In this document: positions 3,985-4,224 of the stretch, one piece after another
How the letters are laid out: the number at the start of each line of letters is the position of its first letter
Numbering within the stretch: position 1 is the first letter of the stretch
Assembly: GCF_017348835.2 (NCBI RefSeq)
Contig: NZ_CP072315.1
Origin: Escherichia coli
GTDB taxonomy: Bacteria > Pseudomonadota > Gammaproteobacteria > Enterobacterales > Enterobacteriaceae
Length of the DNA: 64,000 nt
Strand: one strand, 5' to 3'
Notes under the pieces: generated by a model
The model's database searches: none
Told to the model about the DNA's origin: nothing
What the model saw: only the letters and a program-made list of their open reading frames with translations
Translations under genes and position numbers: made by a program

Positions 3985-4009
3985 TGCAGCCGTCTTCTGA
4001 AAACGACAA
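3985..4009 (-). repeat. IRi, 25-bp integrase-end inverted repeat of the class 1 integron
   Basis: Plus strand GTGCAGCCGTCTTCTGAAAACGACA is the reverse complement of TGTCGTTTTCAGAAGACGGCTGCAC. Confidence 0.8.
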
Positions 4010-4224
4010 ACAGCCAGAAAGGCTGTTACAGGCGATTTGATCTGCAACCTATTGGTTAAATTAATGTATCAAAAACGATGGTTTTTGTGACAGTCTTGAA
4101 AAGTCCTGACTTCTCCCGAAAAATGACTCCCCTCATGTAACAAAACTCGTTACTGTATCAACATAACAATAACCCCATAACTAATTAGCGAGAAAAGAAT
4201 GAAAATCGGCTATGCACGTAAATC

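Follow-up and report, generated by a model that had tools for sequence, protein, structure and literature searches.

The region analysed here lies close to the left end of a 64,000-nucleotide stretch of Escherichia coli DNA (contig NZ_CP072315.1), indicated as "the window" in what follows. The window starts inside the cassette array of a class 1 integron: the cassettes aac(6')-Ib-cr, arr-3 and dfrA27 are found on the minus strand, to the left of the integrase gene intI1 (2793-3806, plus strand, 337 aa), which was taken from the list of open reading frames and is annotated as intI1 in homologous loci. Beyond intI1, a pattern search localizes IRi (TGTCGTTTTCAGAAGACGGCTGCAC, minus strand), the 25-bp inverted repeat that terminates this Tn402-like class 1 integron, at 3984-4008, with its outer end at 4008. 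An internal 18-nt direct repeat is typical of the IRi end, and a repeat scan found one near IRi, with copies at 3960-3977 and 3983-4000.

Direct reading of the sequence gives a gap of 190 bp (4009-4198) between IRi and an ATG at position 4199, which opens a short coding remnant on the plus strand, ATGAAAATCGGCTATGCACGTAAATC (4199-4224). These 26 nt encode MKIGYARK, followed by the first two bases (TC) of the codon for Ser9; an earlier reading had given the start as MKIGYARKS. A complete IS26 begins at 4225, immediately after the remnant. The original prediction had described IRi as lying about 190 bp from a resolvase-like gene start, cut by IS26 after 26 bp. Both the distance and the position of the cut are confirmed, while the coordinates given for IRi, 3985-4009, are one base too far to the right. 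From the stop of intI1 (3806) to the ATG (4199) the spacing in the window is 393 bp.

The 216 bp enclosed between the integron and IS26 (4009-4224) are identical, at 100%, to sequences of the IncN plasmids pKPC-629, E41-1 p3 and pNL194. When 4010-4224 (215 bp) was used for the search, matches were found in 2,286 plasmid records, 1,871 of them at an identity of at least 99%, a number which excludes a chance resemblance; the same stretch matches 437 of the 5,426 complete E. coli genomes, nearly always on plasmids. In pKPC-629 and E41-1 p3 it is located between intI1/IRi and a 570-bp gene annotated as "recombinase family protein" (WP_001749988.1), with the IncN repA gene about 2 kb further on. 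In the inspected IncN plasmids, more generally, the stretch has either the integron or ecoRII on one side and resP on the other, with resP and repA downstream. By its identity, the plus-strand fragment 4009-4224 is assigned to the IncN1 plasmid backbone: it comprises the first 26 nt of resP and, of the 239 bp between ecoRII and resP, the distal 190. The ecoRII/resP/repA synteny is a feature of the reference plasmids only. A search of the whole window for the rest of resP and for any further IncN DNA was negative. The 393-bp spacing is the same as in plasmid N3, where intI1 is at 37219-38232 and uvp1 at 38625-39194 (PMC3347995).

The 26 nt of ATGAAAATCGGCTATGCACGTAAATC are identical with nt 1-26 of resP (also uvp1), the IncN recombinase gene of 570 bp. 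Its product, WP_001749988.1, is 189 aa long and begins with MKIGYARKSTHLQ. Analysis of the full-length protein against Pfam returns a Resolvase domain (PF00239, E 1.1e-34, 120 bits) and a HTH_7 domain (PF02796, E 6.8e-16, 58.6 bits); its nearest relatives of solved structure are the Gin invertase (E 3.5e-38) and the gamma-delta resolvase (E 5.6e-19). The gene start seen as resolvase-like in the original prediction does belong, by plasmid matches and Pfam domains, to a genuine serine resolvase gene, whose 5' end and upstream region make up 4010-4224; the database search proposed there as a check recovered resolvase-associated IncN sequence, as predicted. A small serine recombinase gene, defined by an N-terminal Resolvase catalytic domain with the active-site serine and by a C-terminal HTH, is present in full length in IncN plasmids; in the window, where 26 nt are left, there is none. 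Ser9 is presumably the catalytic serine, as we judge from its alignment with the YAR-x-S motif of resolvases, and the gene would thus be destroyed in the window at the codon of its presumed catalytic residue. The reading frame of the remnant continues into IS26 for a total of 25 aa and ends at 4276, 12 nt before the ATG of tnp26; since elsewhere IS26 is found in both orientations at this same junction, no function is suggested for the arrangement. The Uvp1 protein of R46 is an active resolvase according to the account of Tosini et al. (1998) given in PMC12217951.

Directly beside IRi, at 4009-4013, the IncN sequence starts with AACAG, one copy of a 5-bp target-site duplication. The other copy is found in pKPC-629, where both ends of the integron are available: in the coordinates of the extracted locus (L001), IRt is at 555-579 and IRi at 3975-3999, and AACAG flanks them at 550-554 and 4000-4004. 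A 5-bp duplication at the matching IRt junction had been indicated beforehand as something to look for in related plasmids. In the window only the IRi-side copy is present. When the two flanks of the pKPC-629 integron were joined with a single AACAG, the resulting hypothetical empty site of 131 nt was found in real plasmids, with 100% identity over its entire length; 515 records, including pNL194, cover at least 80% of it. In pNL194, an IncN plasmid with no integron, the empty site corresponds to the 239-bp intergenic region between resP and the divergent gene for the EcoRII endonuclease, and AACAG occurs in it once, 185 bp upstream of the resP ATG. The only IRt of the window (23106-23130) was considered as a partner of IRi 3984-4008 and rejected: it is flanked by CCAAA and forms part of an IS6100/mph(A) module.

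The frequency of the two junctions was evaluated by comparing 40-mers spanning them with 72,556 plasmid records, where an exact word of 28 bp had to cross the junction. The IRi/AACAG junction was found in 1,686 records, some of which hold only part of the interval, and the AACAG/IRt junction in 1,361, with a TniB annotation in one. Clinical class 1 integrons usually do not carry a complete tni module.

The features observed are those expected of a Tn402/Tn5053 product: 25-bp repeats IRi and IRt (as a pair in pKPC-629), a 5-bp duplication, and IRi as the end nearest to the resolvase gene, toward which it is oriented also in the window. For this family of "res hunters", the reported indicators of targeting are 5-bp direct repeats, insertion in or near res, and IRo (that is, IRi) closest to the target resolvase gene, while transposition into non-res sites is reported to be inefficient (PMC7765201). 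For IncN1 plasmids, an integron hotspot adjacent to resP is on record, where the inverted repeats measure 25 bp and the direct repeats 5 bp (PMC5027574). That the junction may be the original insertion point of the integron in a res region, as first proposed, is therefore supported by the AACAG duplication, the empty site and the orientation of IRi toward the resolvase gene, with one correction: the plasmid that received the integron was of the IncN type, and not the IncHI2 replicon to which the window belongs.

Among known systems, the closest is the IncN1 integron site of R46 (In1), N3, pKOX105, pIMP-HZ1/pP378-IMP and pKPC-629, which shares with the window the IRi/AACAG junction, the 393-bp spacing and the flank; the window differs in keeping only 216 bp of the IncN side, in having resP cut at nt 26 by IS26, and in carrying the unit in an IncHI2 plasmid. 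Other insertions of the Tn402/Tn5053 type (In2 in Tn21, In4 in Tn1696, and those in IncP parA-res) have similar 25-bp repeats and 5-bp duplications, again with IRi/IRo nearest to the resolvase gene, and they lie in or near the res of a serine resolvase (PMC7765201), as the present insertion may do. The target is different here, as it consists of a plasmid-borne small serine recombinase of the Gin/Hin type, rather than a Tn3-family TnpR or ParA.

At the other end of the fragment, the IS26 copy (4225-5044, plus strand) is complete, 820 bp long, has tnp26 on the plus strand and starts with GGCACTGTTGCAAA. The last 8 bp of the IncN sequence, CGTAAATC (4217-4224), served IS26 as its target; of the two copies produced by the duplication, the window has one, and the other is in IncN plasmids elsewhere. 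The junction between resP nt 26 and IS26 was found, by a spanning 40-mer, in 119 plasmid records, where IS26 is present in either orientation: the one of the window (40/40 matched) or the opposite one (34/40, with divergence after the shared 14-bp terminal repeat). The reciprocal junction (end of IS26, CGTAAATC, rest of resP) is present in seven plasmid records; the one that was inspected is typed as IncN,IncR and features the IncN repA just past the junction. The element thus conforms to an IS26 insertion, with its 820 bp, its 14-bp inverted repeats and an 8-bp duplication, whose second copy of CGTAAATC is located outside the window.

This copy is one of six complete IS26 in the window (4225-5044, 8187-9006, 22107-22926, 27341-28160, 32696-33515 and 36683-37502), two on the plus and four on the minus strand. 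No matching CGTAAATC or GATTTACG was found in the window beside any of the six copies, and none of them has matching 8-bp flanks, indicating that all the current junctions derive from rearrangement and not from simple insertion. The segment 5045-9006, delimited by two directly oriented IS26, contains a fragment of a relaxase/helicase-like gene and an IS26-truncated gene for a methyl-accepting chemotaxis protein with a PAS domain; this segment plus one IS26 is arranged like a translocatable unit. The second IS26 (8187-9006) is followed by an ISVsa3-floR module; in the IncN/IncR plasmid pESBL_DR09b, an IS26 connects this module with the remaining part of resP. Further along, the complete IS26 at 22107-22926 is adjoined by a 63-bp fragment of an IS26 end (22922-22984), after which come 121 bp of other sequence, the IRt copy at 23106-23130 flanked by CCAAA, and IS6100.

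Public plasmids have IS26 joined to the beginning of resP in several distinct positions (loci L006, L007, L010, L013 and L014): at nt 26, in both orientations and also in an integron-free IncN plasmid; at nt 30 of the IncN1 allele; at nt 30 of a diverged allele; at nt 90; and ahead of the ATG, at a distance of 5 bp. This may reflect either an IS26 hot spot or an effect of selection or ascertainment in favor of IS26 beside the integron. In abutting unrelated DNA with no matching 8-bp duplication, and in the recurrence of the same junction across many plasmid types and in both orientations of IS26, the window is a typical example of IS26-bounded modules, such as pseudo-compound transposons and translocatable units.

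The 190 bp upstream of resP were also analyzed for a possible recombination site. The strongest symmetry within 4009-4198 is a 28-bp palindrome at 4065-4092, TGTATCAAAAAC-GATG-GTTTTTGTGACA, an inverted repeat with 12-nt arms, 83% complementary, and a central AT at 4078-4079. About 120 bp separate it from the recombinase gene downstream, and the architecture of the palindrome, a 26-28 bp inverted repeat with 12-bp arms and central AT, is like that of res site I of gamma-delta/Tn3 and of the hix/gix sites of Hin/Gin. In addition, its A-tract half-sites TATCAAAAAC recall, in our view, the hix half-site TTATCAAAAACC. Direct comparison with gix, the site of Gin in Mu, gave 16/26 for the best match in register, a value not above shuffled controls. 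We propose 4065-4092 as a candidate crossover site for ResP (res site I); some 50 bp lie between it and the point where the integron inserted.

Other elements accompany the palindrome. A block at 4136-4173, revealed by the repeat analysis (repeats D2 and I3) and by the motif scan, contains two direct half-site-like repeats, TGTAACAAAACT (4136) and TGTATCAACATA (4154), candidate accessory resolvase-binding sites or, alternatively, a candidate resP operator. A hairpin with a 7-bp stem, AACAGCC-AGAAA-GGCTGTT (4009-4027), has the integron insertion point at its foot and overlaps a weak half-site-like sequence, TGTAACAGCCTT (4019-4030, minus strand). As the half-site motif was derived from the same sites which it then ranks, the scan is circular: this applies also to the integron portion 3807-4008, where the motif found no good half-site. 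A sigma-70-like promoter match (TTGAAA, 17 nt, AAAAAT; 4096-4124, plus strand), directed toward resP and IS26, is weak; it was the only match of the promoter scan, a number no higher than in shuffled sequences, and the variant allele does not keep this stretch. On the minus strand of the empty site, the 4009-4027 hairpin is followed by TGTATATAAT, where a -10 hexamer of perfect sequence, TATAAT, precedes ecoRII; in IncN plasmids, the ecoRII promoter may have had its -35 region displaced when the integron inserted. In the IncN plasmid pKPC-59e4 (L009), a blaKPC-2/ISKpn6 element, taken as Tn4401, is located a few bp to the left of the palindrome (about window position 4059).

Conservation was evaluated on two resP-upstream alleles only, the one of the window and the diverged allele of pYLPI24b and pNT1N34, whose resP is about 83% identical. 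The palindrome is kept at 27 of 28 positions, and the 4136-4173 block is also kept; the 43-bp spacer between them is unrelated in the diverged allele, and both flanks of the block diverge. The res of a serine recombinase is expected to lie upstream of its gene and to comprise an imperfect inverted repeat of about 26-34 bp, with a central dinucleotide for staggered cleavage, besides accessory binding sites; the 28-bp palindrome with its central AT and the repeated half-site-like motifs are candidates for these parts. Two further plasmids were considered as a source of additional alleles and turned out to be uninformative: pESA136_4, where IS26 lies 5 bp upstream of the ATG, and p15WZ61, where the upstream region is rearranged.

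Comparison of the IncN1 and variant lineages reveals a sharp change of identity at the palindrome. To the left of its center, on the ecoRII side, identity is 98.4-99.6% over 3.1 kb; to the right, it is 67% in the intergenic portion and 83% in resP. The differences nearest to the center are 80 bp away on the left and about 6 bp on the right, so that the breakpoint is bracketed within 86 bp, which include the center itself. This mosaic boundary (positions 3169-3196 of locus L004, equivalent to 4065-4092 of the window, compared with L007 and L008) looks like the result of a past site-specific exchange at res: an exchange at a resolvase crossover site would yield the pattern observed.

If the crossover site is at 4065-4092, the integron, 185 bp upstream of resP, would have landed about 52 bp outside candidate site I, the best candidate available, and thus beside it rather than demonstrably inside it. 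This distance would suit a different account of the insertion, in which the region near resP merely tolerates insertions, the resolvase has no targeting role, and a single event was spread by selection for resistance. In agreement with such an account, Tn4401, a Tn3-family element and not a res hunter, occurs within the same ecoRII-resP interval of pKPC-59e4 (about position 100), so that tolerance may have contributed, and the 1,686 IRi junctions represent one identical event, uninformative on preference. Tolerance without targeting is nevertheless an unlikely explanation, given that the orientation of IRi, the 5-bp duplication and the proximity of a serine resolvase gene all fit the published res-hunter pattern, and that transposition of these elements outside res is reported as inefficient (PMC7765201). 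The placement of the site itself is challenged by the work on R46: boxI and boxII of the Uvp1 res (subsites I and II) are located within the 5'-CS of In1 according to the account of Tosini et al. (1998) in PMC12217951, in disagreement with a site I at 4065-4092. Functional res would then be a hybrid extending into the 5'-CS of the integron, and the palindrome an accessory site or an operator. To this, which we hold to be rather improbable, can be opposed the integron-free IncN plasmids (pNL194 and the 514 other records), which keep resP and the palindrome with no 5'-CS and so argue that the native site does not need it. Moreover, the allele mosaic boundary coincides with the palindrome, and the scan of 3807-4008 offered no good half-site match, within the limits of a circular motif.

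Class 1 integrons are often found in the res sites of transposons. The integron might accordingly have inserted straight into a res native to the IncHI2 plasmid, or to a resident transposon of the Tn21/Tn1696 type, with IS26 cutting the local resolvase gene in place, a course of events to which nothing in the data points. The sequence is, instead, 100% IncN backbone, with the ecoRII/resP/repA synteny of IncN in the reference plasmids; the rest of resP and an IRt partner flanked by AACAG are absent from the window, and the reciprocal IS26 junction adjoins the IncN repA in the inspected record (one of seven). A native res is hence extremely improbable, and the res of a Tn21/Tn1696-type transposon is ruled out as the origin, the match being with IncN backbone.

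The reading preferred here, and held as very probable, is that 4009-4224 is a hitch-hiking IncN1 scar, left by insertion of an integron beside resP, a subsequent hit by IS26 and IS26-mediated transfer, and retaining an apparent ResP site. The history starts from an ancestral IncN1 plasmid, where a Tn402-like class 1 integron entered the ecoRII-resP region, duplicating AACAG, with IRi toward resP; this event is documented by the junctions. Such behavior is that of res-hunter transposons guided by a target-bound serine resolvase, and guidance by the resolvase is proposed also for this integron. Later, IS26 inserted into resP after nt 26, duplicating CGTAAATC and breaking the gene off in the Ser9 codon, presumed to be that of the catalytic serine; to this step, too, the junctions attest. 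Distribution and context then suggest that IS26 moved the integron, the 216-bp IncN tail and IS26 itself into other replicons, among them the IncHI2 multiresistance region of the window, either by formation of a cointegrate or a translocatable unit, or through recombination of one IS26 copy with another. IncHI2 transfer backbone makes up the right half of the window, whose closest overall relative is a Salmonella plasmid of type IncHI2A that carries the same resistance region. As suggested by conservation and symmetry, the tail would still keep an apparent ResP recombination site, with 4065-4092 as the crossover candidate and 4136-4173 as the accessory block; with no resP in cis, this site would stay inactive except where ResP comes from an IncN plasmid.

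The finding is real and already known. The IRi/resP junction has long been described in IncN1 plasmids, including R46 and N3 (PMC5027574; PMC3347995; Tosini et al. 1998, in the account given by PMC12217951), and targeting by res hunters, the IncN hotspot and IS26 mosaics carrying scraps of former hosts are all established.

The value of the two junctions, IRi/AACAG and resP nt 26/IS26, is that of a lineage marker, for the IncN past of the aac(6')-Ib-cr/arr-3/dfrA27 integron and for its IS26-mediated move to IncHI2; as such, they help to trace resistance modules between plasmid families, and add no new biology. A further idea, to which we give a small chance, is that the orphan ResP site, apparently complete, travels with the integron as a portable site of recombination and targeting, whenever an IncN plasmid supplies ResP in trans. 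If this were true, the site would allow site-specific fusion, or exchange of segments, between IncN and unrelated plasmids such as IncHI2, as well as further insertions of res hunters, and the abrupt switch between alleles at the palindrome would have been left behind by exchanges of this kind.
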